From Nitrosopumilus sp. (lineage in GTDB: Archaea; Thermoproteota; Nitrososphaeria; Nitrososphaerales; Nitrosopumilaceae), in the NCBI GenBank assembly GCA_029250275.1, contig JAPFBP010000002.1, positions 23,014-87,013 on the forward strand: a stretch of 64,000 bases of DNA, written 5' to 3'. The translations under genes were made by a program, and so were the position numbers. The first letter of the stretch is position 1. Each line of letters starts with the position of its first letter. The notes beneath the pieces were generated by a model that did no database searches, was not told the origin of the DNA, and saw nothing but the letters and a program-made list of their open reading frames with translations. Below, in pieces: positions 50,881 through 63,735 of this stretch.

Positions 50881-51450
50881 TCAATTTTGAATTTATAAAA
50901 TTCCTTCTTTGATCAAAAACTAAATTCATTGAATGAATCATCATCGATTGCATCATCTGTCCACCAGCCTGCATTGTTTTTTATCCAATATGGAATCTCT
51001 GAGAAATCTAAAGTTTTTTGCTGAGTTTGAGGAATTACAATAATATTATTTTGTATTAAATATTCAAGTCCAATAAAGAACCAAAAAAATTCTTATCAAT
51101 TTTTTTCTTCAACAATAATAGAATCAGAATCTTCTGACACAAAATTAAAAACTATGAATCCATTATCTGCTTTAAATTCCTGTTCAAACAAAAATGTTTC
51201 ACCACGTTGTGATTTTATCAGAAAAATAACATCATGTAATGTAATTTTAGAATCAAAATCAATCATAGATATGGAAATCTGTTGATCATCACTTGTTTCA
51301 GGATCATTTTTTAAAGATAAAATTTCTAATGTGTCTTACTTTCCATTAAATTCTATAAATGAAAAGTTTCACTATCTATACCATTACCATATGTATAATC
51401 AATTACAAACAAAAAAGAAAATATCAGAATAGCAAGTAATTATAAATTTT
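50881..51450 (-). pseudogene. Decayed, internally deleted paralog of the HGxG / WIKNNA surface-protein family
   Basis: Fragments TYGNGIDSETF, DTLEILSLKNDPETSDDQQISISMIDFD...SIIVEEK, then IGLEYLIQ..EIPYWIKNNAGWWTDDAIDDDSF, with stops and frameshifts; boundaries approximate. Confidence 0.7.
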
Positions 51451-51695: not shown

Positions 51696-53423
51696 CTATG
51701 ATTGAATTCTCATAATTCCTTCTTTAATCAAGAATTGAATTCCTTGAATGAATGAATCATCGTCAATTTGTCCTGCTGCCCACCATTCTGCATTGTTTTT
51801 AATCCAACTTGGAATATCATTGGAACCTGAACTAGAGTTTTGTGTAGTTGGAGGAATCTTTAGAATATCTTCTTTAATCAAAAATTGAATTCCTTGAATG
51901 AATGAATCATCGTCAATTTGTCCTGCTGCCCACCATTCTGCATTGTTTTTAATCCAACTTGGAATTGATGTTTTCTCAAGTGCTGTTAGAATTGAGGTTG
52001 AAGAACCAGGACCAATTTCAATAATGGATGAACCAATTCCAGCATATGTTGGATTAAAATCTAATCCTGTTCCATAAACTAGAATATCAACTCGAATCTG
52101 GCCAGCAGAAGGAACATAGATTTTCTGTATATCTAATCCTTCAATTCCTACAATTCCAGGATTAATAGAATCAGTACCGTCATTTCGTGCTATTTCTTTA
52201 TCAAATTCATCAAAAACAACATAAGCATATCGTACATCTTTGATTAATTCTCTATTTTCATTAAAGAATGTAAACTCAAATGGAATGTCTTGATTTGCAC
52301 CATATTTTCCATCCCATGAAATGTTTATTGTTGTTGGAACTTTTTCATAGTTTGTAGTATCTACAAGATAGAATTCTGTGGAACTTTTTGATACTTTTGC
52401 TAATGGAACTAATTTCAAGTCCATCTTTGGATTGTCATAGTTACTTGAACCTAATTTTTCATTAATTTTTTGTAATTCATTTTTAGTAATTAGAAAATGA
52501 ACAATGTTTGTATCATCATAGGAGTATGGATCATTAAGTAATGCTCTCTGATCAATTTCTACTCCGTTAACATATCCTTTGAATTGTTTTCCTTCTGCAT
52601 AAGGTACAAATGTTTTTGGAACTCTAACTTCTTCGTGTACTACTTGGACTTGATCAATATAAGATGGATTCCAATTAAATGGCATATCAAATGAGATGGA
52701 ATTATCAAACGTATTAAAATCAAAATTTTCAACTTCATCATAGTATGTTTTTACAATGACTGGAATTTCTTCAGTATTTGCAGATTGGAAAGAAAAATTT
52801 TGTTCTTGTGCAATGCTAACAAAAGTTTCATAAGATAACGGATTAGCTAAGACTACTGTTGGACTAGTAGCTGCTTCAATATCAACTCTAATCTTGTATA
52901 ATCCACCTTTCACAAATATAGGACCTGTCATTGATGGTCTTCCACATATGTCTAAATTATCATCAGTACATTCTGCCCCTTGAACATATAATGCACCTGG
53001 TGCACTAACATGTTCAGAACCACCATAAATTGTACATGTTTCAATGGGATTTTTATTACATCCAGTTTTTGGTTTGATTTTCACATCCAATCTTCCATCT
53101 GTATCATAGAATAGATTTCTAGCTAACAGTTCACCACTTTGCCAAACTTCCACTCGGTATGTGACTTTGTCTAGATTAGTATCAGTTAATGTATCAAAGA
53201 AACGTACTTGCATATTTGCAGAATCAATTTCTCCAACTGTAATGTCAGATGGACTCAATTGTGTACGAACAGTTACTTCCATATCACCAAAACTGATTGG
53301 TGGTGCTTGATCCCCTCCTAAACCATGTGCAAATGCATTAGGAAGAAGAAAAGGAATTGTGAAAATACCAATTATCGTAACGAGTAATGCAATTTTGTTA
53401 TACAATACAGAAAATTCCTTCAT
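51696..53423 (-). CDS. Exported protein with mature N-terminal HGLGG and two C-terminal WIKNNAEWW domains
   Basis: Signal peptide ending AFA then [10 protein letters not shown]; duplicated [32 protein letters not shown]. Confidence 0.85.
51721..51965. repeat. 95-nt direct repeat (51721-51815 and 51871-51965), 1 mismatch
   Basis: Read directly; encodes the two WIKNNAEWW modules. Confidence 0.9.
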
Positions 53424-53466
53424 TCCATATTTAAAGATGGTATAGGATTTCTATGCATGATAATTT

Positions 53467-53482
53467 TTTTCTAATTAGAAAA
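53467..53482. promoter_or_regulatory. Perfect 16-bp palindrome ttttctaattagaaaa in a divergent intergenic region
   Basis: Read directly; function inferred. Confidence 0.4.
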
Positions 53483-53521
53483 TAGAGTACGACTTTTATT
53501 TCCGATATTCAAAGTAGTAAT

Positions 53522-54343
53522 ATGAAATTTTTATTTGCATTATTACTAATTCCATTGCTAATTATTCCAGTATTTGCTGAATCACAGACTATGTCAACAG
53601 AAAAAGGAACATTGGATGTGAAATTAACTTATGATGTAATTAAACAAAATGTTCAAAATAAAATTAACATTGATTTCATCAATCCTCAAACACAAAAAAT
53701 TCAAGAACATGTTGATTGGTCAGTGCTAGTTTTAAAAGATGGTAAAACTGTTTTTGGACCAATCCCATTAACTCATACATCAGTTGGCTCTGTAAAAATT
53801 CCAATTGAATTCAATCTTGGAGAGGGAGTCTATACAATGGACTTTAAAATAGAAGGAATTTTGTTCCAACCAATTCCAGCTGAAGCAGTATCTTTTGATA
53901 TTGTTGTTGGTGATACTTATGCACAACCAACAACGCCAAATAATAAAACTCCAGTTAAAGACGATAACGGAGGATGTCTAATTGCAACTGCAACGTATGG
54001 TTCAGAGATGGCACCACAAGTTCAACTACTTAGAGAAATTAGAGATAACACATTATTCAGTACAACTTCTGGTACCACTTTCATGAACGGGTTTAACACA
54101 TTATACTATTCATTTGCACCAACAGTTTCAGATTGGGAAAGAGACAATCCAATGTTCAAAGAAGCAGTAAAAACTGTAATCACTCCAATGCTTTCAACAT
54201 TATCTATAATGTCACTAGCTGATGAAGGTTCAGAGGCAGAAGTATTAGGACTAGGAATATCTGTAATTGCACTTAACTTAGCAATGTATATTGGAATTCC
54301 TGTATTTGGAATTATAAAGTTGTACCAATTTAGAAAAAACTAG
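53522..54343 (+). CDS. Exported CFI-box-CTERM domain protein
   Basis: Signal peptide; GGCLIATATYGSE..VQLLREIRDN; C-terminal TM helix plus basic tail. Confidence 0.85.
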   Translation: MKFLFALLLIPLLIIPVFAESQTMSTEKGTLDVKLTYDVIKQNVQNKINIDFINPQTQKIQEHVDWSVLVLKDGKTVFGPIPLTHTSVGSVKIPIEFNLGEGVYTMDFKIEGILFQPIPAEAVSFDIVVGDTYAQPTTPNNKTPVKDDNGGCLIATATYGSEMAPQVQLLREIRDNTLFSTTSGTTFMNGFNTLYYSFAPTVSDWERDNPMFKEAVKTVITPMLSTLSIMSLADEGSEAEVLGLGISVIALNLAMYIGIPVFGIIKLYQFRKN

Positions 54344-54400
54344 TTCTAATTCTGAAAAGTCCAGTGAAGTATTTATGGAACCCTTCAAGTAATTTATCTA

Positions 54401-55249
54401 ATGAAGACAAAAGCACTTAGCTCTTTCTTTGTATTATTTGCTATCGCAGCAGGTATGGTCGCAATGACACCAGCTGCTTTTGCAGATCACGCAGAAGTCA
54501 CAATTGGAATAGTAGAAAAATCTGGCTTTGGTCAAGACTGTGTAGCAGATGGATGTTATACTCCAACTACTGCAACAGTAGATGTTGGCGGAAAAGTAAT
54601 TTTCTCAAACACTGATACTACTGGAATACATACATTCACAGCAGGAACCGTAGATGGTTTTACTCCTTCACCAACAGGTGAATTTGACACGAGTATTGTA
54701 AAATCAGGAGAAACTGCAGAATGGGTTCCAGATACAGTAGGTGAAGTTCCTTACTATTGTTCACTTCATACGTGGATGATCGGTACAATTGTAGTACAAG
54801 AAGCAGAAGCTGAAGAAGCAAACGCAGCAGCACAAGCTGAAGCAGACGCAGTGATAGACGATGTAGAGTTAATGGTAACAATTACTGATTCAGAAGTATT
54901 AGGTGGAACTCAAGTAGAACTTGAATTCAGCGAAATACATGTCAATTATGAAATCACAGCAATGCAAAATGGTGAAACCATTTACACAGAAACTGCACAT
55001 GCAATGGAAAACACAGCAACTCATCAAATTGATGCAGTTGGTTCTGATGAAAGTCCTATTGACATTGACATAGTTTCTTTTGGAATTGGTGTACCAGGTA
55101 ACGAAGCAGATTGGACTGGACCAACAGGTATAGTAGCTACATCACAAGTTGTACCAGAATTTGGTACAATTGCAATGATGATACTAGCTGTTGCAATCAT
55201 AAGCATCGTAGCAGTAACTGCAAAATCTAGAGTCGTTCCAAGATTTTAG
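54401..55249 (+). CDS. Blue (type 1) copper/plastocyanin-like protein with PEFG-CTERM anchor
   Basis: HTFTAG and YYCSLHTWMIG (H, C, H, M ligands); VVPEFG + TM + basic tail. Confidence 0.9.
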   Translation: MKTKALSSFFVLFAIAAGMVAMTPAAFADHAEVTIGIVEKSGFGQDCVADGCYTPTTATVDVGGKVIFSNTDTTGIHTFTAGTVDGFTPSPTGEFDTSIVKSGETAEWVPDTVGEVPYYCSLHTWMIGTIVVQEAEAEEANAAAQAEADAVIDDVELMVTITDSEVLGGTQVELEFSEIHVNYEITAMQNGETIYTETAHAMENTATHQIDAVGSDESPIDIDIVSFGIGVPGNEADWTGPTGIVATSQVVPEFGTIAMMILAVAIISIVAVTAKSRVVPRF

Positions 55250-55263
55250 GAATACCTCTTTTT

Positions 55264-55953
55264 TTATTTTCTTTTTATTAAAGATATAATTGCCAAGATA
55301 ATAGCTGCTGTTGCAATTGACAATCCAAATATTGCAAAGTCATAAGATGTATCATCAGAAGAACCTTTGATCTCACCTGAGTTTAGTTTAGAAACATCTT
55401 GTTGTAAAGATAAAATTGCATTCTTTAGTGCAGCAATGTCGGTATCTCCAGCACTAAATGATGGTGGAAAATCCAAGACTGCTGTAGGTTCTACATCTTC
55501 TATAGGTATTTTAACATCAACAGGAATTCCATTAATTTCTCCTATGAATTCTACAGTGTAACTTCCAGTTTTAGTTGGAATTATTGATGAAAAATAATAT
55601 CCAGGTCTAGGATCAGAATTAATATCAATTTTTTTGGAGGCACCTCCAAACATTACTGTAGCATCCATATTTTTGAAAACACTAGTCACTCCTTTACGAG
55701 TACCTTCTGTTTCTCCAGCCTCAGTAAATTTAAAGACAAGATCATTTCGAATTCCCACTACAGGTGGTTCAATTCCCCATCCTACTTCAATTTCATATGG
55801 TTCAACATGAACGGTGGTATGTGCAAAAGATGGTGTAATTATTCCAATTGAAAATAATAAACCAATAATGCCAAAAATTGCTATCTTCACTGCCATCATT
55901 TCACCATAACAGGTTATTATCTTTACGTGGATTGGTACAAAGTTAGAATTCAT
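55264..55953 (-). CDS. Exported, C-terminally anchored protein with mature N-terminal His
   Basis: Signal ending SFA then HTTVHVEPYEIEVGW; C-terminal TM plus KRK. Confidence 0.8.
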   Translation of the reverse strand: MNSNFVPIHVKIITCYGEMMAVKIAIFGIIGLLFSIGIITPSFAHTTVHVEPYEIEVGWGIEPPVVGIRNDLVFKFTEAGETEGTRKGVTSVFKNMDATVMFGGASKKIDINSDPRPGYYFSSIIPTKTGSYTVEFIGEINGIPVDVKIPIEDVEPTAVLDFPPSFSAGDTDIAALKNAILSLQQDVSKLNSGEIKGSSDDTSYDFAIFGLSIATAAIILAIISLIKRK

Positions 55954-55992
55954 GAAAACTGTTTAAATTGTCAATAATGACCTGAAGGTTAA

Positions 55993-58776
55993 ATGCAAAA
56001 ATTTCTGATTGCTTTGTTGGTAATATTATTTATTTCAATTCCATTTGCAGCAGCTCATCCATTTACAGAAAAGACCATTCCAAGCTTGGCATCTAATGCA
56101 CCAGCTGGCACTACAGAAGTAATTGTATTTTTTTCAGAACCAGTTGACATTAACTTTAGTGAAATCAAAATATTAGATAGTAATGGTGATCAAATCGATA
56201 ACAAAGATACTAGTTACTATGAAGGAGAACTATCTCTCATTGTTACAACTCCTCCACTAAATAACGGAGTATACACTGCATCAACCAAAGTCCTCTCTAA
56301 AGTTGATGGACATTTAATTCCAAGTGCATTCTTGTTTGCAGTAGGAAATGTTGTAATTGATCCTGCATTATTAGGACATGAAGTACCATCAGAATTGGTA
56401 TTTTTGCCTGAAGCAGGAGCTAGACTTCCTGGATTAGTAGGTCAAACAATTGTTTTGGGTTCTGTAATTGCATCTCTTGTTATTTGGGGAACACAAAGCA
56501 AGCAGCTAATTAGAGAAGAATTAAACAAAATAGAAAAATTTCATCACGGAAAATTCATGTCAGTCACTGGAATTGGACTGATGTTAATTTTTGTCTCAAA
56601 TATTTTGATGATTGTAGTACAAACTATAAGATTAGAAGCTTCACCTATAGATGCAATTCAAACAGATTTTGGTTCTACGTGGATAGTTAGAATGATTATT
56701 ACAATAATTTCACTAGGTATTTGGTTTGGTATGGACAGAAAAAAAACCCTATCAAAGAAAAATCAGACACCATTGTTTGTAGCTATGCTTGCATTAATTA
56801 GCACATCAAGCTTAATTGGACATGGTGCAGCAAGTGGACAAGTCCCTGCTTTATTTTTAGATTATATTCACAATCTTGTCTCAGCTGTTTGGATAGGTGG
56901 AATATTTTATTTTGTTTTCATATTACTGCCAACATTTTCACAATTAAAAGAATCAAAACGAGAAAAGATGAGTTTATTATTAATTCCAAAATTCTCAATT
57001 GCATTCATTATTTCTATAGGAATTGTAATCATTACAGGCCCAACACTGATGTGGTTTTTGGAAAGTGACGTAGGACTAATCACTGAATCAGTGTATGGTC
57101 AATTAATTATTTTAAAAATTACAATTGCAGCAGTGATGGTCGGATTGGGAGGATTTGTACAATTTAAAATTCAAAAAAACGCTGAAAAGAATTTTCCATC
57201 TGGAAAAATTTTAGTTTATAAAAAACTAAAAAAATCTCTTAAAATTGAAGCTGTATTAGGGATAATTCTTCTGGGAGTAGTCGCACTACTAACAAATGGA
57301 ACATTACCTGCAGGTGAAATTCAGAAAGTTGATGCACAAGAAATTGTTTATGGTTTTAAGACCTTAGAGTTTACAGAAAATGCAAAATTCGACATTGATA
57401 TTTCACCATTTTCTAGTGGAATAAATACAATTTTTGTAAAGGTAAGTGATTTTGAAGGAAATCCACTTTACGATTCAGATCAAATTAAAGTAAAGATATC
57501 AAATCCATCAAAAAATATTTCTCCAATTGAAGTTCCTATGGAACTCATCAAGCAGGAAGAAAGCAGATCTAATAAATTCCAAGGAGAATTAACATTTGGA
57601 TTTTCAGAAGAGTGGTTAATAGAGATTGAAGCTCAAAGGACTGAGAATGCAAATGAATCAATTATGTTAAATTTACTTGTAAAACCTAGATTAACAAATA
57701 TTCAAACACAAGTTATTGAGTATGAATTACCTGAAAATGCAAAACCATTATTCCCATTGTATGATGGAAAAGATTCTTTGTGGATTAGTGATGCATCTGC
57801 TCCCAGATTATGGCAATTTTCACTTGAAACAAATGAATTTACATCTTATCCATTTGATGGTTTAGTTTCAACTTTTCTAACACAAGATAACAAAGGAAGA
57901 ATTTGGTTTACAGATACACCTAGAAATCAAATTGGATTTATCGACATTGAAAGTAAAGAAATTACAACTAAAACTCTTCCAAAACTAGACCCAGTGATTT
58001 CAAAAAATACACCACTATTCATCAAAGCAGATTTTGATGATAACATTTGGATTACAGTTGTTAACAAAGATATAATTCTAAAATATCTACCAGAAGAAGA
58101 TATTTTTGAAGAAATAGTTCTGCCAGGCAAACAATCACTTCCGTTTGCATTAACTATTGATGAAGATGGAAAAATTTGGTATTCTACAACTGGAACTGGT
58201 AAAATAGGGTACATAGATCCTCAAACTAATGAACTAACTCAGATTTCAACTGAAACAATATTGCAGGCACCAGAAGCTTTAATTTTTGATGATGATGGAA
58301 ATTTATGGATTGCAGAGCATACAGGCATGGCTATTACCAAATTTAATCCAATTTTAGAAACATTTGAAAAAATCTCTGTTCCAGATGATAAATCATTACC
58401 ATTTGGAATGACATTTGACAGATATGGAAACATTTGGTTTGCACAACACACTGCAGATAATCTTGGAGTTTATGACCCAGATAACAATGACTTGATTGAG
58501 ATCCCAGTTCCAACTGAAACATCATTTGTTCAATTCATGACATCAGATGGAAATGATAATATTTGGTTTGTTGAACAACAATCAAACAAAATTGGAACAG
58601 TGAAAATTATAGAAATTCCAGTAAGTATTTCACAAGTTCAAGAATTAGATGATATTAAAATAAAGTATACAGAGATTGCATCACCATTAATTGCTTTAGG
58701 AATTATTGCAACATCATTATTTTATGTAAAAAGTATTCAAGATAAAAGAAGATTAAATTTTTTGATTAATTCTTAG
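55993..58776 (+). CDS. CopC-CopD fusion with a C-terminal Ig-like domain and Vgb-like beta-propeller
   Basis: AAA then HPFTEKTIP, FSEPVD, SKVDGH (CopC); GHGA, HNLVSAVWIGG (CopD); repeated G.IWF/D..GNIW blades. Confidence 0.88.
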   Translation: MQKFLIALLVILFISIPFAAAHPFTEKTIPSLASNAPAGTTEVIVFFSEPVDINFSEIKILDSNGDQIDNKDTSYYEGELSLIVTTPPLNNGVYTASTKVLSKVDGHLIPSAFLFAVGNVVIDPALLGHEVPSELVFLPEAGARLPGLVGQTIVLGSVIASLVIWGTQSKQLIREELNKIEKFHHGKFMSVTGIGLMLIFVSNILMIVVQTIRLEASPIDAIQTDFGSTWIVRMIITIISLGIWFGMDRKKTLSKKNQTPLFVAMLALISTSSLIGHGAASGQVPALFLDYIHNLVSAVWIGGIFYFVFILLPTFSQLKESKREKMSLLLIPKFSIAFIISIGIVIITGPTLMWFLESDVGLITESVYGQLIILKITIAAVMVGLGGFVQFKIQKNAEKNFPSGKILVYKKLKKSLKIEAVLGIILLGVVALLTNGTLPAGEIQKVDAQEIVYGFKTLEFTENAKFDIDISPFSSGINTIFVKVSDFEGNPLYDSDQIKVKISNPSKNISPIEVPMELIKQEESRSNKFQGELTFGFSEEWLIEIEAQRTENANESIMLNLLVKPRLTNIQTQVIEYELPENAKPLFPLYDGKDSLWISDASAPRLWQFSLETNEFTSYPFDGLVSTFLTQDNKGRIWFTDTPRNQIGFIDIESKEITTKTLPKLDPVISKNTPLFIKADFDDNIWITVVNKDIILKYLPEEDIFEEIVLPGKQSLPFALTIDEDGKIWYSTTGTGKIGYIDPQTNELTQISTETILQAPEALIFDDDGNLWIAEHTGMAITKFNPILETFEKISVPDDKSLPFGMTFDRYGNIWFAQHTADNLGVYDPDNNDLIEIPVPTETSFVQFMTSDGNDNIWFVEQQSNKIGTVKIIEIPVSISQVQELDDIKIKYTEIASPLIALGIIATSLFYVKSIQDKRRLNFLINS

Positions 58777-59584
58777 ATAACAATCCAGCTGACTTTATTC
58801 CCATAGTTCCTGCAAGCAATCCAATTGCGATTAAGACAATAGTTCCTGCAGGAGTAATATCAAAGATGTAAGAGACTAGAATTCCTACTATGACTGAAAA
58901 AACAGAAAAACTCATTGAAATGATTGCTGTTTGTTTGAATCCTTTACCATACATTATTGCTGTAACATTAGGAATTACAAATAGAGCTGAAATTAACAAC
59001 ACCCCTACTAGTTGAATTGATGTAACTACAGTAATTCCTGCCATAAACACAATCAAGTAATTTATTTTTTCTACAGGAATTCCACTAACTTTAGCTTGTT
59101 CTTCATTGAATGTTGAATAAAGAAGTTGTCGATAAAGTAATAAAATTACAATTAGAATTGCTCCAGTTAATGCTAAAACTAGAATTGTGTCATCTACACT
59201 TACAAGTAGAATACTACCAAATAGAAAACTAAAGATATCAATTGTAAATCCACCAGATAATCCAATAATTACGAGCCCAACTGCTATGCCTGAAGACAAT
59301 AAAACGGCAATAGATGCATCACCAGATATGTTGTATTTGTCTTTGATTTTTGTAATTATCAGTGCGCTAGCTATAGAAACAGCATATGCAGTCCATAAGG
59401 GATAAACACCAGCCAGTAACCCTAAAGCAATTCCACCAAATGATGAATGTGCTATTGCATCACCAAATAATGAATAACGTCTTAAAACTAGAAACAATCC
59501 CACCACTGAACAAAGAATTGCAATTGCAACACCAGAAATTAATGCTCTATGCATAAAACTGAAAGTTAGAATTTCAAGAGACAT
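58766..59584 (-). CDS. znuB: Zn/Mn-type ABC transporter permease
   Basis: LRRYSLFGDAIAHSS, FLFGSIL, FNEEQAKVSG, VGVLLISALFVIP. Confidence 0.93.
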   Translation of the reverse strand: MSLEILTFSFMHRALISGVAIAILCSVVGLFLVLRRYSLFGDAIAHSSFGGIALGLLAGVYPLWTAYAVSIASALIITKIKDKYNISGDASIAVLLSSGIAVGLVIIGLSGGFTIDIFSFLFGSILLVSVDDTILVLALTGAILIVILLLYRQLLYSTFNEEQAKVSGIPVEKINYLIVFMAGITVVTSIQLVGVLLISALFVIPNVTAIMYGKGFKQTAIISMSFSVFSVIVGILVSYIFDITPAGTIVLIAIGLLAGTMGIKSAGLLSKN

Positions 59585-59586
59585 GA

Positions 59587-60309
59587 CTAATGATGATGCA
59601 TATGTTCCTGCATTGAGGCCTCAGAATATTGTTTAACTAGTGCATCATCAGAAAAGAATTTTTCAGATTCACCATGAAAGAATAAAGTTCTATTTAGACA
59701 TGCTACATGATTTGCTAGTTGATTAACGGCATCCAAATCATGAGATGACCAAATAATGGTAATTTTTTGTTTAGAATTTAATTCACGTAGAATGCTGTAA
59801 AATAAATCAATACTTTGTTGATCAATTCCAGTTACGGGTTCATCTAAAATCAAAATTTTTGTGTTATTTACCAAAGCCTTTGCAATAAACACACGTTGTT
59901 GTTGTCCACCAGATAATTCTCCTATTCTTCTTTCACGAAGTTCATGTATCCACAATTGTTGTAAAATTTCATCAATTTTATTTTCATCAGATTCTTTTCT
60001 TAATCCCATTCGAACAACATCAGTAACAGTTACTGGAAAATTTTTCTCAAAGATTGGCTTTTGTGGAACGTAACCGAGTTGTTTCAAATAATTTTTTGAT
60101 TTTTTAATATCTTCATCAAAAAATTTGATTGTACCTGTATATTTTGTATAAAGCCCAAGCATAGAAGCAAAAAGTGTTGATTTTCCAGCACCATTTGGTC
60201 CAATTATGCCTAAAAAATCACCTTGATTAACTACTAAACTAATGTCATCAAGAGCCTTGACATCAGGATATTGAACAGTTAGATTATTTATTTCAACTAT
60301 TTTCAACAT
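59587..60309 (-). CDS. znuC: Zn/Mn-type ABC transporter ATP-binding protein
   Basis: GPNGAGKST, YVPQ, LSGGQQQR, LDEP, SHDL; C-terminal EHMHHH. Confidence 0.94.
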   Translation of the reverse strand: MLKIVEINNLTVQYPDVKALDDISLVVNQGDFLGIIGPNGAGKSTLFASMLGLYTKYTGTIKFFDEDIKKSKNYLKQLGYVPQKPIFEKNFPVTVTDVVRMGLRKESDENKIDEILQQLWIHELRERRIGELSGGQQQRVFIAKALVNNTKILILDEPVTGIDQQSIDLFYSILRELNSKQKITIIWSSHDLDAVNQLANHVACLNRTLFFHGESEKFFSDDALVKQYSEASMQEHMHHH

Positions 60310-61199
60310 AATGCCTCCTTTAGATTTTCAAGATTTTGATTCATTTTTGAAATATAATTTCCATCAGAAACAATTTCAAGTGGAGATAAAACTAAAACTT
60401 TTCCTCCTATTTCATTGGCAATTATTTGAGAAGTTTTTGTATTAACAGATTCTTCACTAAAGATTACTTTGATATTTAATTCTCTAGCTTTTGAAATAAC
60501 ATTTTCCAATGTTTTTGCAGTAACTTCTCCATGGGAATTACTTGATGGAATTATGGTATGTTGATTCAAATCATATTCTTCAGCAAAATATGAAAATGCA
60601 TCATGAAATGCAATAAAATCATTATTACAATTAGATAATTCAGTTCTAATTTTTGAATCAAGTAAATCTAATTTTTCGCTATATTGTGCAGCATTTGCGT
60701 GATAAAACTCTCCATTTTTAGGATCATAATTTGAAAAAGCTAGTGCAATATTTTGTACTTGTTTTTTTGCATAAACAGGATTTAGCCAAATATGTGGATC
60801 AGCAGTATTTTCTTGATCTAAATTATTAATTAAAATTCCATCGCTTGTATCAATTATAATTCCTTGATAATTATTTTCAGCTAAATTATCTACCCAATTT
60901 TCAAAACCTATTCCATTAATTATAATTAAATCAGATTTTTGAATCTCTTGAACATCTTTTATGGTTGGTTCCCAATCATGTGGTTCAACTCCAACTGGAA
61001 CTAGTAATCTAACATCAACTTTATCCTGTCCAACTCTTTGTGAAAATTCATGAAGTGGATTAAATGATGAGATTACCTGCAGTTTAGAATTATCAATTGG
61101 AGTATACTGTTGATTGGAATTAGTACTGTAAACAACAATTGATGTTAATGGGATTACTATTACGATTGCAATAATTGCTAGTTTTGTTTGTGTATTCAC
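60303..61199 (-). CDS. znuA: Cluster A-I metal ABC substrate-binding protein
   Basis: EPHDWEP, DPHIWLNP, FHDAF.YF, LSPLE. Confidence 0.93.
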   Translation of the reverse strand: MNTQTKLAIIAIVIVIPLTSIVVYSTNSNQQYTPIDNSKLQVISSFNPLHEFSQRVGQDKVDVRLLVPVGVEPHDWEPTIKDVQEIQKSDLIIINGIGFENWVDNLAENNYQGIIIDTSDGILINNLDQENTADPHIWLNPVYAKKQVQNIALAFSNYDPKNGEFYHANAAQYSEKLDLLDSKIRTELSNCNNDFIAFHDAFSYFAEEYDLNQHTIIPSSNSHGEVTAKTLENVISKARELNIKVIFSEESVNTKTSQIIANEIGGKVLVLSPLEIVSDGNYISKMNQNLENLKEALC

Positions 61200-61210
61200 A
61201 AAGCAACTCG

Positions 61211-61244
61211 ATTAAGATTATTAATAAATTTATAAAATCTTAAT
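61211..61244. promoter_or_regulatory. Putative NikR-type operator: attaagatt-N16-aatcttaat
   Basis: Perfect 9-16-9 dyad between the divergent znuA and nikR; overlapping 7-15-7 dyad at 61218-61246. Confidence 0.55.
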
Positions 61245-61289
61245 AAGATTAATTGCTAAACTTATAAGATAATTAATAACATTAGACAT

Positions 61290-61673
61290 ATGCCAATAGT
61301 TTCAATCTCTCTAAATGATGAGATTCTAGCAGAATTAGACAAGATTCAATCTTCAATGGGATTTTCTGGAAGGTCAGAAGCCATCAGAGCAGGAATTAGG
61401 ACATTTGTTTCTGAAGAAAAACAAAAAGCCAATTTGTCAGGAAATATTCATGCTATTCTCTTAGTTGTTCATAATGATGAATTTGATCATATAGTTTCAG
61501 GAATTACACATAATTTTGAGGATTTAATCACAACACATCTTCATAGTAAAATCGACAAAAAAAAATGCATGGAGCTTTTTGTAATTAATGGAGATGCAGA
61601 AAAAGTATCTACAATTACAAAAGATTTTCAGAGAAATAAAAATATGGATACTGTAAAGTTAGTGGCACTTTAA
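61290..61673 (+). CDS. nikR: NikR-family (RHH + ACT-like) metal-responsive regulator
   Basis: IVSISL...SRSEAIR; metal site ITH..HLH..C matches E. coli NikR His76/His87/His89/Cys95 spacing approximately. Confidence 0.88.
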   Translation: MPIVSISLNDEILAELDKIQSSMGFSGRSEAIRAGIRTFVSEEKQKANLSGNIHAILLVVHNDEFDHIVSGITHNFEDLITTHLHSKIDKKKCMELFVINGDAEKVSTITKDFQRNKNMDTVKLVAL

Positions 61674-63025
61674 ATGAATAATTGATTTTTTCTAGATACA
61701 AAAATAATACTCATTGTAGAAATTACCAATATCAATAATGCAATAGTTCCAAATTCAGGTACAACAACTAGTACAAATTCAGTTTCTTGTCCTGTATTTC
61801 GAATATTTTCAAATTTGATAATTGTAGGACCAGTCTGATCTTCAGTAAATGTGAATTTTTCAAATTCCCCACCAATTTGAGCCAGTCCGGAAATACGATA
61901 AATTTCTTTGCCATTTTGAATTATCACAAATGTATAGTCAGAACTTCTTAGAGGTTCATTAGTTCTTCCATCTCTAATTGTAAAAATAAAATTAGTGGCA
62001 ACACCAGGTTCTACAACCATTGGATCCCATGAGAGGTTTATTTTGAAGTCTTCACTTTTTGTATATGCTTCTAATGGAAATGCTTTATCTGTGCTCATAG
62101 AAATTGTAAATATCATATTTTTAGGAAATTCACTAAGATCTTTTTTCATTTCATTTTTCAAATATCGCAAATGATCTTGTAACAAAACAAAATGAACTAT
62201 TCTTTCATCATCTTCTGTATAGTCATCAACAGAAACTGAAGATTTGAATAATTCAATTCCATTTACATATCCAGAATAACTAGGTGCTAAAAATTCGACA
62301 AACTCTTTTGGAAAATGAGTTTCTACGTGAACCACAGAAACATGTGACATTTGTTTTTCACTCCAGTCAAATGGCATTTCAAATGTTACTTGATTAGCCT
62401 CATAATCATAATTGAAATTAGAAATTGTATCAAAATACGACTTTGAACGAAAATCTACATCATTATTTTTAGAGTCTTTTTGAGTGAATGAAACAGTCTC
62501 AATTACGCTCAAATCAGCATTATACATTCCAGATTCTATGATATTTGTAGGTTCATCAATCGTTCGTATCTCAATTTCAAAATTATACAAACCACTTGAA
62601 TCAAACAATGGTCCTGTAATTTCTAGAGGATTAGATTCAGTTCCATGCCATGCTCCAAGCAATGAGTCTTGTTCACCATAAATTGTAATTTCATCTTCTT
62701 GTGTAGGATTGATTTTGATTTGTAAAATACCATCTTCTGTAAAGAAATAGTTTCTAAAGATCATTTCATTTTCATGAAACAGACCAATTAGGAAGGTAAC
62801 GTTTTTTGCATTTTCTTTTGTTGCATCTTCAGTTGCAGTAATTGTAATTTGTTCTTGATCATTTTCAAAAGTCATTGGCATCTCTACAGAGATTGAAAGT
62901 TTTTTTCCTTGAATGTCTATTGAAGAAATTGTATCAAGACCAAATCCATGTCCATAAACACTACTTAAAGGAAACAACAAACATGAAATCAATCCAAATA
63001 TTACAAATTTTTTTAAAGATATCAT
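61670..63025 (-). CDS. Exported PEFG-CTERM protein with mature N-terminal HGFGL (paralog of 51696..53423)
   Basis: Signal ending VYG then HGFGLD; shares FDMPF.W, VHVE..PK and VHF with the 575-aa paralog; VVPEFG anchor. Confidence 0.85.
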   Translation of the reverse strand: MISLKKFVIFGLISCLLFPLSSVYGHGFGLDTISSIDIQGKKLSISVEMPMTFENDQEQITITATEDATKENAKNVTFLIGLFHENEMIFRNYFFTEDGILQIKINPTQEDEITIYGEQDSLLGAWHGTESNPLEITGPLFDSSGLYNFEIEIRTIDEPTNIIESGMYNADLSVIETVSFTQKDSKNNDVDFRSKSYFDTISNFNYDYEANQVTFEMPFDWSEKQMSHVSVVHVETHFPKEFVEFLAPSYSGYVNGIELFKSSVSVDDYTEDDERIVHFVLLQDHLRYLKNEMKKDLSEFPKNMIFTISMSTDKAFPLEAYTKSEDFKINLSWDPMVVEPGVATNFIFTIRDGRTNEPLRSSDYTFVIIQNGKEIYRISGLAQIGGEFEKFTFTEDQTGPTIIKFENIRNTGQETEFVLVVVPEFGTIALLILVISTMSIIFVSRKNQLFI

Positions 63026-63027
63026 AA

Positions 63028-63735
63028 TTATACTATCAATAATTCTTCAACTCGCTTAATTAGTTCATCCATAGTTGTAGCCTCTAAAATTGGCTGTAAC
63101 TCATTTGGATCCTTAGCACCAATTGCTGATAATGAGTAAATATAATCAACTGTTGGGGTATCAGTATTAAGATAATATTGTTCCAAAACATGATCCAATG
63201 AATGTGAATCTACAATTTGAGGCAAAGCTTGTTTAATGATTTTCTTTTTCCATAATTCAACTAATTTTACCCATTTCTCAAGTAAGATATTTTCATCAAT
63301 TTCAGGAATCATTTCAACTTCTGCTTGTATGTACATTTTTTCTTTTGTTCCAATTTTTTCATGTATTTCAGAAATTTCTTGATGTCCCTCAACTGAAAGA
63401 GGATCATAATTTACTGGTTGTGTAATAGATGGTGGAATTATTCGTTTAATTTTAAATGAATTTCTTCCAATTGTTTCAATGTGTAATTGTAATCCATCCA
63501 TTTCTACATCTTCACACTTAGAAATTTTAGCAATAGTACCTACTAATTTAGGGGAATTCCAGCCATTGACAGAATTATTTTCATCAATCAAACATACTCC
63601 AAACTGACCATCCCCAATCATGCAATCATCAACTAATTGCTTGTAGCGAGGCTCAAAAATTCGAAGTGGAAGTGCTTGTCTTGGAAATAAAACCAAGTCT
63701 AAGGGAAAAATTGGAATAATTTTTGTTCCGGTCAA
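63028..63735 (-). CDS. LON substrate-binding (N-terminal) domain protein, no ATPase or protease domain
   Basis: PIFPLDLVLFP..LPLRIFEPRY, FGVCLI, VGTIAKI, GRNSFKI. Confidence 0.88.
   Translation of the reverse strand: MTGTKIIPIFPLDLVLFPRQALPLRIFEPRYKQLVDDCMIGDGQFGVCLIDENNSVNGWNSPKLVGTIAKISKCEDVEMDGLQLHIETIGRNSFKIKRIIPPSITQPVNYDPLSVEGHQEISEIHEKIGTKEKMYIQAEVEMIPEIDENILLEKWVKLVELWKKKIIKQALPQIVDSHSLDHVLEQYYLNTDTPTVDYIYSLSAIGAKDPNELQPILEATTMDELIKRVEELLIV

Follow-up and report, generated by a model that had tools for sequence, protein, structure and literature searches.

The 64,000-nucleotide (64-kb) window analysed here, from contig JAPFBP010000002.1 (positions 23,014 to 87,013) of the Nitrosopumilus sp. 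assembly GCA_029250275.1, carries a cluster of genes, A to K (Table 1), that we read, with a probability of roughly 0.5, as a conserved copper-handling island of Nitrosopumilaceae. In this reading, the small membrane-tethered protein D is a Cu(II) binder resembling YcnI of Bacillus subtilis, the exported proteins A and J, whose mature N-termini begin with HGxG, likely hold a metal site, and the NikR-ZnuABC module (I and F to H) is separate. Under the mechanism that we propose, D would bind Cu(II) through its amino terminus and its N-terminal histidine (His1), together with the invariant Glu10/Glu12 and Trp15, as YcnI does, and would exchange it with the CopC domain of E, a fusion of CopC, CopD and a beta-propeller, whose CopD part would carry copper through the membrane. 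The four-domain surface-anchored proteins A, J and a third copy, decayed in this window, would serve in capture, storage or catalysis, while NikR-ZnuABC would be a zinc-type importer lying inside the island by happenstance. From sequence features, conservation, synteny and folds, which were observed directly, we infer metal binding, the direction of transfer and regulation. Such a system is of interest since the energy metabolism of ammonia-oxidising archaea depends on copper enzymes, and their habitats often contain hardly any free copper.

Predicted mature N-termini

A preliminary description of the window, made from the letters alone, had claimed that signal-peptide cleavage exposes His1 in A, D, J and the CopC domain of E, and a histidine at residue 2 in the cupredoxin C. 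Each of these junctions is present: ...LPNAFA|HGLGGDQ in A (His codon at 53327), ...TPSFA|HTTVHVEPY in D (55821), ...IPFAAA|HPFTEK in E (56056), ...LSSVYG|HGFGLD in J (62950) and ...PAAFA|DHAEV in C. The -3/-1 rule is satisfied at 5/5 of the predicted sites (AxA, SxA, AxA, VxG and AxA in A, D, E, J and C, respectively), and homolog conservation sets in exactly at the predicted cleavage positions, which lends these predictions support.

Histidine at position +1 of signal peptides is rare, at about 1-2%. Here it occupies the predicted +1 position in four of the six cleavable exported proteins of the cluster, which come from three independent families, and this clustering is not a matter of chance because the histidine is kept in orthologs. 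The degree of retention differs among the families: His1 is invariant in D and is preserved in about 60 orthologs of E, which keep A|HP[FY]T, whereas in the HGxG family residue 1 is nearly always His or Asp.

Conservation of the island

Synteny was compared across ~160 Nitrosopumilaceae loci, comprising about 80 Nitrosopumilus species loci and 80 distant loci. The order K-J-I-H-G-F-E-D-C-B-A is nearly constant in about 80 Nitrosopumilus genomes, which by itself counts for little, since genomes of one genus share their gene order. E and D are divergently oriented in 68/80 distant loci and in practically every Nitrosopumilus locus; D and C are convergent, with a C homolog adjoining D, in 67 of the 80 distant loci, and most of the remaining loci lie on short contigs. 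The invariant core of the island is E-D-C, with B and the A- and J-type genes as frequent accessories.

These accessories stay close to the core through several kinds of rearrangement. The K-J pair is relocated next to B in four rearranged loci (L038, L055, L056 and L065), and in loci without the ABC/NikR block, J or A directly adjoins E. In three divergent genomes (L085, L168 and L169; 44-50% identity), a J-type gene lies beside NikR-ABC-CopCD-D or directly beside CopCD. The linkage between HGxG and CopCD genes also occurs in Nitrosotenuis (L082).

The CopC-CopD fusion and its exported neighbours

The copper reading of E is well grounded in its sequence, the CopC domain appearing to be of the canonical Cu(II) type. 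This domain matches PF04234 at 34 bits (cut-off 23.3) and combines His1 (AAA|HPFTEK) with an Asp-Gly-His motif (KVDGHL), the Met-rich site being absent; the CopD part matches PF05425 at 50.4 bits (cut-off 32.1). E thus resembles the Cu(II)-only class of CopC (C0-1, e.g., Methylosinus trichosporium CopC), in which His1 follows the signal peptide, Asp-Gly-His is present, a Met-rich Cu(I) site is missing and fusion to CopD occurs. Unlike bacterial CopCD proteins, E carries a Vgb-lyase/SMP-30-like propeller, and the archaeal pseudo-periplasm represents a different setting.

In the cupredoxin C, the type-1 copper ligand set is visible in the sequence (GIHTF ... YYCSLHTWM), and the Pfam scores fall below threshold (18.2 vs 27 for Cupredoxin_1 and 16.1 vs 21.2 for Copper-bind). 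The PEFG-CTERM model TIGR04296, with a cut-off of 25, scores 50.7 bits in C and 43.6 bits in J. C orthologs whose N-termini were captured by pattern search keep the mature DH. B, the other neighbour, has the mature N-terminus FA|ESQ and hence no N-terminal His. Its N-terminal immunoglobulin (Ig)-like domain can be aligned with domain 4 of HGxG proteins (hhalign E = 1e-4, probability 56%), and B may have branched off from that family as a single-domain protein with another C-terminal module, the CFI box.

Protein D as a likely counterpart of YcnI

The N-terminal histidine of D is under strong constraint. It is invariant in 120 close orthologs, is kept in all ~60 distant metagenome homologs with a readable N-terminus, and is also found in Nitrosotenuis (AFA|HKTVTV) and in one genome of high guanine-plus-cytosine (GC) content (SA|HTTVSV). 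At 38-43% identity, the residues that remain invariant near the N-terminus are His1, Thr3, Val4, Val6, Tyr9, Glu10, Glu12, Gly14, Trp15, Glu18 and Pro19-Pro20; His5 is not conserved. In the AlphaFold model of D, the sandwich core has a predicted local distance difference test score (pLDDT) of about 85-93, and residues 2-6 and 9-15 form a hairpin whose registry would place His1, residue 3, residue 5, Glu10 and Glu12 on one solvent-exposed face. The sandwich is followed by a long helix and then by a C-terminal membrane helix (residues 157-184; hydrophobic tail FGLSIATAAIILAIISLIKRK).

Structural comparison of this model with Foldseek gave weak matches overall (E-values 0.007-0.04), among which copper-binding sandwiches rank high. 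The best specific matches, at a Foldseek probability near 1, are CrdA of H. pylori (template-modelling (TM) score 0.53) and FetP/P19/FtrA (0.45-0.48). By sequence, D has no Pfam or NCBIfam match, in Pfam even at E = 10, and no significant match in the PDB with either a single sequence or a profile. The profile of D and that of the HGxG family share only the junction between signal peptide and His.

The closest parallel in architecture and context is YcnI, which has a signal peptide, an N-terminal His with Glu and Trp ligands and a transmembrane helix at its C-terminus, is encoded beside the CopC-CopD fusion YcnJ, and takes part in Cu(II) exchange with that fusion's CopC domain (PMC8424229, PMC12154828). 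The arrangement of D and E repeats that of YcnI and YcnJ in the B. subtilis ycnKJI operon: a signal peptide followed by His1, an ectodomain built as a beta-sandwich, Glu and Trp conserved near the N-terminus, a membrane helix at the C-terminus, and a gene adjoining a CopC-CopD fusion with a histidine-brace CopC. There are differences as well. D has no detectable sequence homology to DUF1775, the family of YcnI, and its Glu and Trp cannot be aligned to Glu50 and Trp137 of YcnI; D and E are divergent rather than part of one operon; a YcnK-type repressor is absent; and the archaeal island adds a cupredoxin and a CFI-box protein, as well as the extra beta-propeller of E.

Membership of D in DUF1775 was considered and rejected, given the lack of a Pfam hit at E = 10 and an hhalign probability of 1.4% for the D profile against the YcnI sequence (7me6). 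Strong indirect evidence instead favours D as a new, sequence-unrelated counterpart of YcnI, that is, an analog and possibly a very distant relative. D is a concrete candidate for experiment, being small, soluble once truncated and backed by a bacterial precedent; the prediction is that it would bind Cu(II) at His1 and exchange it with CopC.

The longest open reading frame of D, which is common to many database entries, carries an 18-codon 5' extension (55900-55953, minus strand). The consensus of 79 loci lacks the upstream ATG, and for many orthologs the called length is 209-217 amino acids. Given that this ATG lacks conservation and that a conserved promoter element runs into the stretch, the extension is probably an annotation artefact. 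Translation most likely starts at Met19/20 (55899/55896), which gives a textbook signal peptide.

A conserved promoter element upstream of D

A block between E and D is conserved across 79 loci, and its copy in the window reads TTCTAACTTTGTACCAAT on the strand of D. The element is followed by the TATA-like AAAGATAATAAC (about 55914-55925), with 49 nt separating the start of the element from the ATG of D. According to Reyes et al. (PMC7785015), a motif, TTCSGSMTTTGWACYANT, occurs 35-70 nt upstream of genes induced by copper limitation in Nitrososphaera viennensis, including copC/D. The element consensus found elsewhere, TTCGAAATTTGTACCAAT, agrees with that motif at 16/18 positions, and overall the agreement is 15-16/18. 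Matches to TTCSGSMTTTGWACYANT with at most three mismatches were recovered in 63/79 loci, always on the strand of D, compared with 0.9% of random 100-nt windows. Among the distant loci, the distance from TTGTAC[CT]A to the downstream His codon of D is fixed at 110-119 nt in 45 of 61, compared with a background of 2.7%.

Since the loci are related, these counts amount in effect to one conserved element that resembles an independently derived motif. The resemblance suggests copper-responsive control of D, and perhaps of E. The same copper-limitation motif occurred only at background level upstream of A/B, K/J and H/I. A look-alike upstream of C (54312-54329) was rejected as a shared element, as it falls within the coding end of B and is conserved in only 7/44 distant loci. 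The element of D could offer a handle on copper-responsive regulation common to marine and soil lineages.

The HGxG family

The paralogs A and J (26% identity, E = 9e-38) have aligned N-terminal histidines. A has four beta-sandwich domains and two C-terminal repeats of ~33 amino acids, and its orthologs keep HG[LFI]GGD. The decayed copy reading YG|NG that had been noticed earlier proved genuine. In one frame its junction is ...DYTYG|NGIDSETF (Asn codon 51385-51383), and the sequence goes on in a second frame; it contains stops and a frameshift, has lost domains 2-3 and retains a C-terminal WW-type repeat. Against the intact HGVGSETFPPVDLNGRQVTLEVSSS subfamily ('HGVGSETFPP'), tblastn with P0337 and P0382 gives 60-68% identity with in-frame stops, and in other genomes an intact HGxG paralog occupies the same position downstream of A.

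An exhaustive profile search recovered 571 clusters of the family at 50% identity, and all named members belong to Nitrosopumilaceae (Nitrosopumilus, Nitrosarchaeum and Nitrosotenuis). A search for distant relatives with a diverse profile in a database of 5.8 billion proteins returned J-type orthologs only. For A and J, Pfam and NCBIfam scans gave nothing except PEFG-CTERM even at E = 10, and no significant PDB match was obtained by sequence or profile. Some relatives of A and J are labelled 'peptidase'; this label was rejected, as it is only a source name and neither Pfam nor NCBIfam gives a peptidase match. HGxG proteins represent a large family, unannotated or mislabelled, that is genomically tied to the copper island. 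They are anchored through PEFG-CTERM or, in 44/150 representatives, through C-terminal 'WW' repeats, which are presumably a cell-surface attachment module. In the window, the WW repeats of ~33 amino acids (51696-51990 and 50931-51080, both on the minus strand) correspond to no Pfam model.

Residue 1 of the mature protein is narrowly constrained. Among ~133 representative N-termini it is His in 94, Asp in 29 and another residue in ~10 (Asn, Gln or others), 17 further sequences being fragments. Under a stricter motif the numbers are 86 His vs 23 Asp, and the consensus reads [H 79% / D 21%]-G-[LFIV]-[GST]-x-[E/D 82%]-x-L-P-P after AxG, VxG or AxA. Residue 1 is His in about 77% of clusters and Asp in about 22%, and an apparent A ortholog of Nitrosotenuis, with the same position and C-terminal repeats, nevertheless has Asp at residue 1.

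The AlphaFold model of J (pLDDT 95.1, predicted TM score 0.87) consists of four beta-sandwich domains. On its numbering of the mature protein, the residues that are nearly invariant in His- and Asp-type members alike are G2, F69, G74, G120-L121-Y122, D174, P193-F194 and W196, along with H208, E210, N230, D242 and H253 in domain 3. In the alignment, Asp-type members have Lys at position 258 (100%) and Arg at position 200 (88%), where His-type members mostly have Asn or Gln. These two positions are the best separators of the two types, a distinction confounded by phylogeny, and both lie beside the invariant histidines of domain 3. This pattern hints at charge compensation at 200/258, with residue 1 docking on domain 3.

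The evidence for the family therefore consists of a constrained His/Asp N-terminus and a lasting linkage to the copper island, and suggests a metal site, with a structural role as a serious rival. Most likely, the [His/Asp]-Gly-x-x-x-[Glu/Asp] N-terminus and the invariant His/Glu/His/Asp set of domain 3 together form that site. A bolder version would make the HGxG proteins a new copper-protein family of Nitrosopumilaceae, in which the amino terminus and His1 form a brace with two domain-3 histidines, the proteins trap copper at the surface with high affinity or work as redox enzymes that the neighbouring cupredoxin serves, and the Asp-type members are copper-free and shut by a salt bridge; we regard this as doubtful. 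If HGxG proteins do bind copper, they would provide a new fold for histidine-brace or N-terminal metal chemistry.

Alternatively, the HGxG proteins could be structural components of the envelope, i.e., of the pseudo-periplasm or surface layer (S-layer), with no role in copper handling; the [H/D]-G terminus would then be a latch that docks on domain 3 through hydrogen bonds or salt bridges, and proximity to CopCD would reflect gene order only. The four stacked sandwiches of J fit such a role, as the top 50 Foldseek matches in the PDB are generic stacks (complement C3, alpha-2-macroglobulin and Ig architectures; TM about 0.2) and include no copper-binding fold. So do the anchors, which are PEFG-CTERM or cell-surface-type repeats, the tolerance for Asp in place of His1 with Lys258 and Arg200 resembling a substitute salt bridge, and the occurrence of some paralogs amid unrelated genes (L084, L086 and L167). 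In three Nitrosopumilus strains, moreover, three PEFG-CTERM proteins increase along with S-layer proteins upon exposure to hydrogen peroxide (H2O2; PMC6593220). A purely structural protein would, however, not readily account for a residue 1 nearly limited to His/Asp, an acidic position 6 and an invariant His/Glu/His/Asp set, a pattern typical of metal sites, nor for J- and A-type genes staying beside CopCD through rearrangements and at 44-50% identity, nor for the existence of a fusion between HGxG and a cupredoxin. On balance, we consider a structural role somewhat unlikely, yet worth keeping in mind for this family.

The fusion just mentioned, P0355, is encoded on one 2.1-kb metagenome contig and joins an Asp-type HGxG protein, through a Ser/Met-rich linker, to a plastocyanin domain that replaces domain 4. 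The plastocyanin domain passes the Copper-bind threshold, is of the short-loop type and matches C at E = 1.6e-13, the closest match to C.

The same fusion bears on whether the HGxG proteins could be histidine-brace copper enzymes, with His1, two invariant domain-3 histidines and a nearby aromatic residue such as Tyr122 at the active site and the neighbouring cupredoxin as electron partner. A and J do share features with histidine-brace proteins (lytic polysaccharide monooxygenases and X325/Bim1-like copper-acquisition proteins), namely an exported mature His-Gly on a beta-sandwich, surface anchoring and conserved His elsewhere, and lytic polysaccharide monooxygenases commonly begin with 'HG' when mature. 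H208, H253, E210 and Y122 are invariant, a cupredoxin gene lies within the island, and one member carries a C-type plastocyanin domain in place of domain 4. In contrast with histidine-brace proteins, A and J have no fold match to them, His1 gives way to Asp in about 22% of clusters, and the candidate second and third His are two domains away in sequence. No histidine-brace enzyme appears in the top 50 fold matches of J, Asp-type members would be unable to form the brace, the fusion is a single example on one 2-kb contig, and no substrate can be proposed. An enzymatic role of this kind is improbable.

Copper physiology and the weight of the evidence

Several observations weigh against a copper-handling island of the kind proposed here. 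The match between the element of D and the N. viennensis motif spans two orders and involves 2-3 mismatches, and the synteny evidence stems in large part from a single archaeal family whose gene order is generally conserved. Sequence comparison does not tie D to YcnI, which is also not among its top 50 Foldseek matches; in the HGxG family, the replacement of His1 by Asp, the generic fold matches of J and the paralogs in unrelated contexts point the same way. Physiological data from related archaea add to these points. In Nitrosopumilus maritimus, source of the only published data on copper limitation in a Nitrosopumilus, the CopC/D fusion goes down and a lone copD goes up under this condition, according to PMC7785015 (citing Qin 2018), and a CopC-family membrane protein increases under H2O2 in three Nitrosopumilus strains (PMC6593220). 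Given this decrease under copper limitation and the increase under H2O2, the island may serve something other than uptake.

[quoted passage not shown] Besides the two responses just described, the covariation of the N. maritimus CopC/D fusion with complex IV, reported in PMC7785015 (citing Qin 2018), would fit, as would the core triad in which the cupredoxin is invariant. The model put forward for YcnI itself likewise invokes sequestration or regulation in place of simple uptake (PMC12154828). Against this possibility, the motif that D's promoter element resembles is one of copper limitation and not of excess, and CopD-type proteins are generally tied to import; we consider it unlikely.

In N. 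viennensis, the copC/D neighbourhood, exported unknowns included, is induced under copper limitation (PMC7785015), and the exported unknowns NVIE_014340 and NVIE_001850 are among its proteins induced in this way. The work on N. maritimus postulates a yet unknown chaperone as copper donor to CopD (PMC7785015, citing Qin 2018). Two environmental sequencing runs holding similar sequence had patchy contig coverage and were uninformative on expression.

The capture and relay system at the cell surface suggested in the preliminary description survives in part. A conserved unit around a Cu(II)-type CopC-CopD, the likeness of D to YcnI and the recurrence of HGxG genes beside CopCD all speak for it, whereas the HGxG proteins fit it less well, as His1 is not universal among them, the J model has no copper-fold match and several paralogs lie in unrelated contexts.

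The NikR/ABC module

The same description had let the relay feed CopD or the ABC importer, and feeding of the importer now appears unlikely. The binding protein H is of the zinc type, its family being that of YcdH/ZnuA/AdcA: it scores 260 bits with PF01297 and keeps the zinc-type His ligands, and among solved structures B. subtilis YcdH comes closest (E = 3e-50), the alignment of the two conserving VEPHDWEP, DPH.W and H.AF. Because H is of this type, the module has its own operator region and it is missing from some otherwise complete islands, we took the importer out of the proposed relay. NikR/ABC is probably an independent divalent-metal importer, probably for zinc, and not the sink of a copper relay.

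Its metal specificity is unsettled, since the best NCBIfam scores of F, G and H are to Azt/Znu/Mnt models and lie below the equivalog cut-offs; nickel specificity of I is likewise not established, the NCBIfam equivalogs falling below their cut-offs. F-G-H resemble ZnuABC/AztABC in their ABC-3, ABC_tran and ZnuA matches, in the zinc-type His ligands and in having YcdH as closest relative, and the regulator I, with ribbon-helix-helix and NikR_C domains, is divergently encoded with a palindromic site. Unlike these systems, H lacks a His-rich loop. Zinc importers are normally under the control of Zur, not NikR.

The 90-bp divergent promoter between I and H (61200-61289) is almost invariant in 44 loci and exceeds the flanking genes in conservation. 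It contains repeated TTATTAA(T/G) boxes, and the copy in the window also has TTAAGATT-N16-AATCTTAA, an 8-bp inverted repeat with a 16-bp spacer. This exact palindrome was not found in the other loci, and NikR-type palindromes elsewhere in the window were limited to chance-level matches.

Gene inventory and neighbouring features

The window has a GC content of ~31%. In a crude scan, whose cleavage placement is unreliable and which was used solely to locate where exported proteins concentrate, nearly all signal-peptide-like N-termini of the window fell within this cluster.

Table 1 Features of the cluster in the 64-kb window.
Feature	Position	Strand	Basis
Pseudogene, third HGxG paralog ('HGVGSETFPP' subfamily)	50931-51439	-	Three-frame translation, tblastn
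A, HGxG-family surface protein, 575 amino acids	51696-53423	-	Signal peptide, mature HGLGGD; no Pfam/NCBIfam match
B, exported Ig-like protein with CFI-box-CTERM domain	53522-54343	+	NCBIfam NF041770, E = 7e-20
C, amicyanin-like cupredoxin with PEFG-CTERM anchor	54401-55249	+	PEFG-CTERM, E = 1e-13
D, membrane-tethered Ig-like protein with His1 (HTTVHVEPYEIEVGW), helical linker and C-terminal transmembrane helix	55264-55899 (listed open reading frame to 55953)	-	No family match
Promoter element of D, TTCTAACTTTGTACCAAT	55931-55948	-	Conservation upstream of TATA-like AAAGATAATAAC
E, CopC-CopD-beta-propeller fusion, 927 amino acids	55993-58776	+	Pfam CopC 6e-8, CopD 3e-13, Vgb_lyase 1e-45
F, G, H, ABC-3 permease, ATPase and ZnuA-type binding protein	58766-61199	-	Pfam/NCBIfam, YcdH similarity
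Perfect palindrome TTAAGATT-N16-AATCTTAA	61212-61243	strandless	Inside the 90-bp NikR/ABC divergent promoter
I, NikR-family regulator (ribbon-helix-helix + NikR_C)	61290-61673	+	PF01402 and PF08753 above threshold
J, HGxG-family surface protein, 451 amino acids, PEFG-CTERM anchor	61670-63025	-	Mature HGFGLD; only PEFG-CTERM recognised
K, cytoplasmic Lon N-terminal (substrate-binding) domain protein	63028-63735	-	PF02190, E = 4e-21

K ends 2 bp before J, and the cytoplasmic K and exported J travel together on rearrangement; K is also present in the divergent locus L169. In the Nitrosotenuis locus L082 (1-9500), the extended island also encodes a two-domain protein resembling multicopper oxidases, two membrane proteins of the DsbD type, a protein with a YHS domain and a protease of the HtrA type.

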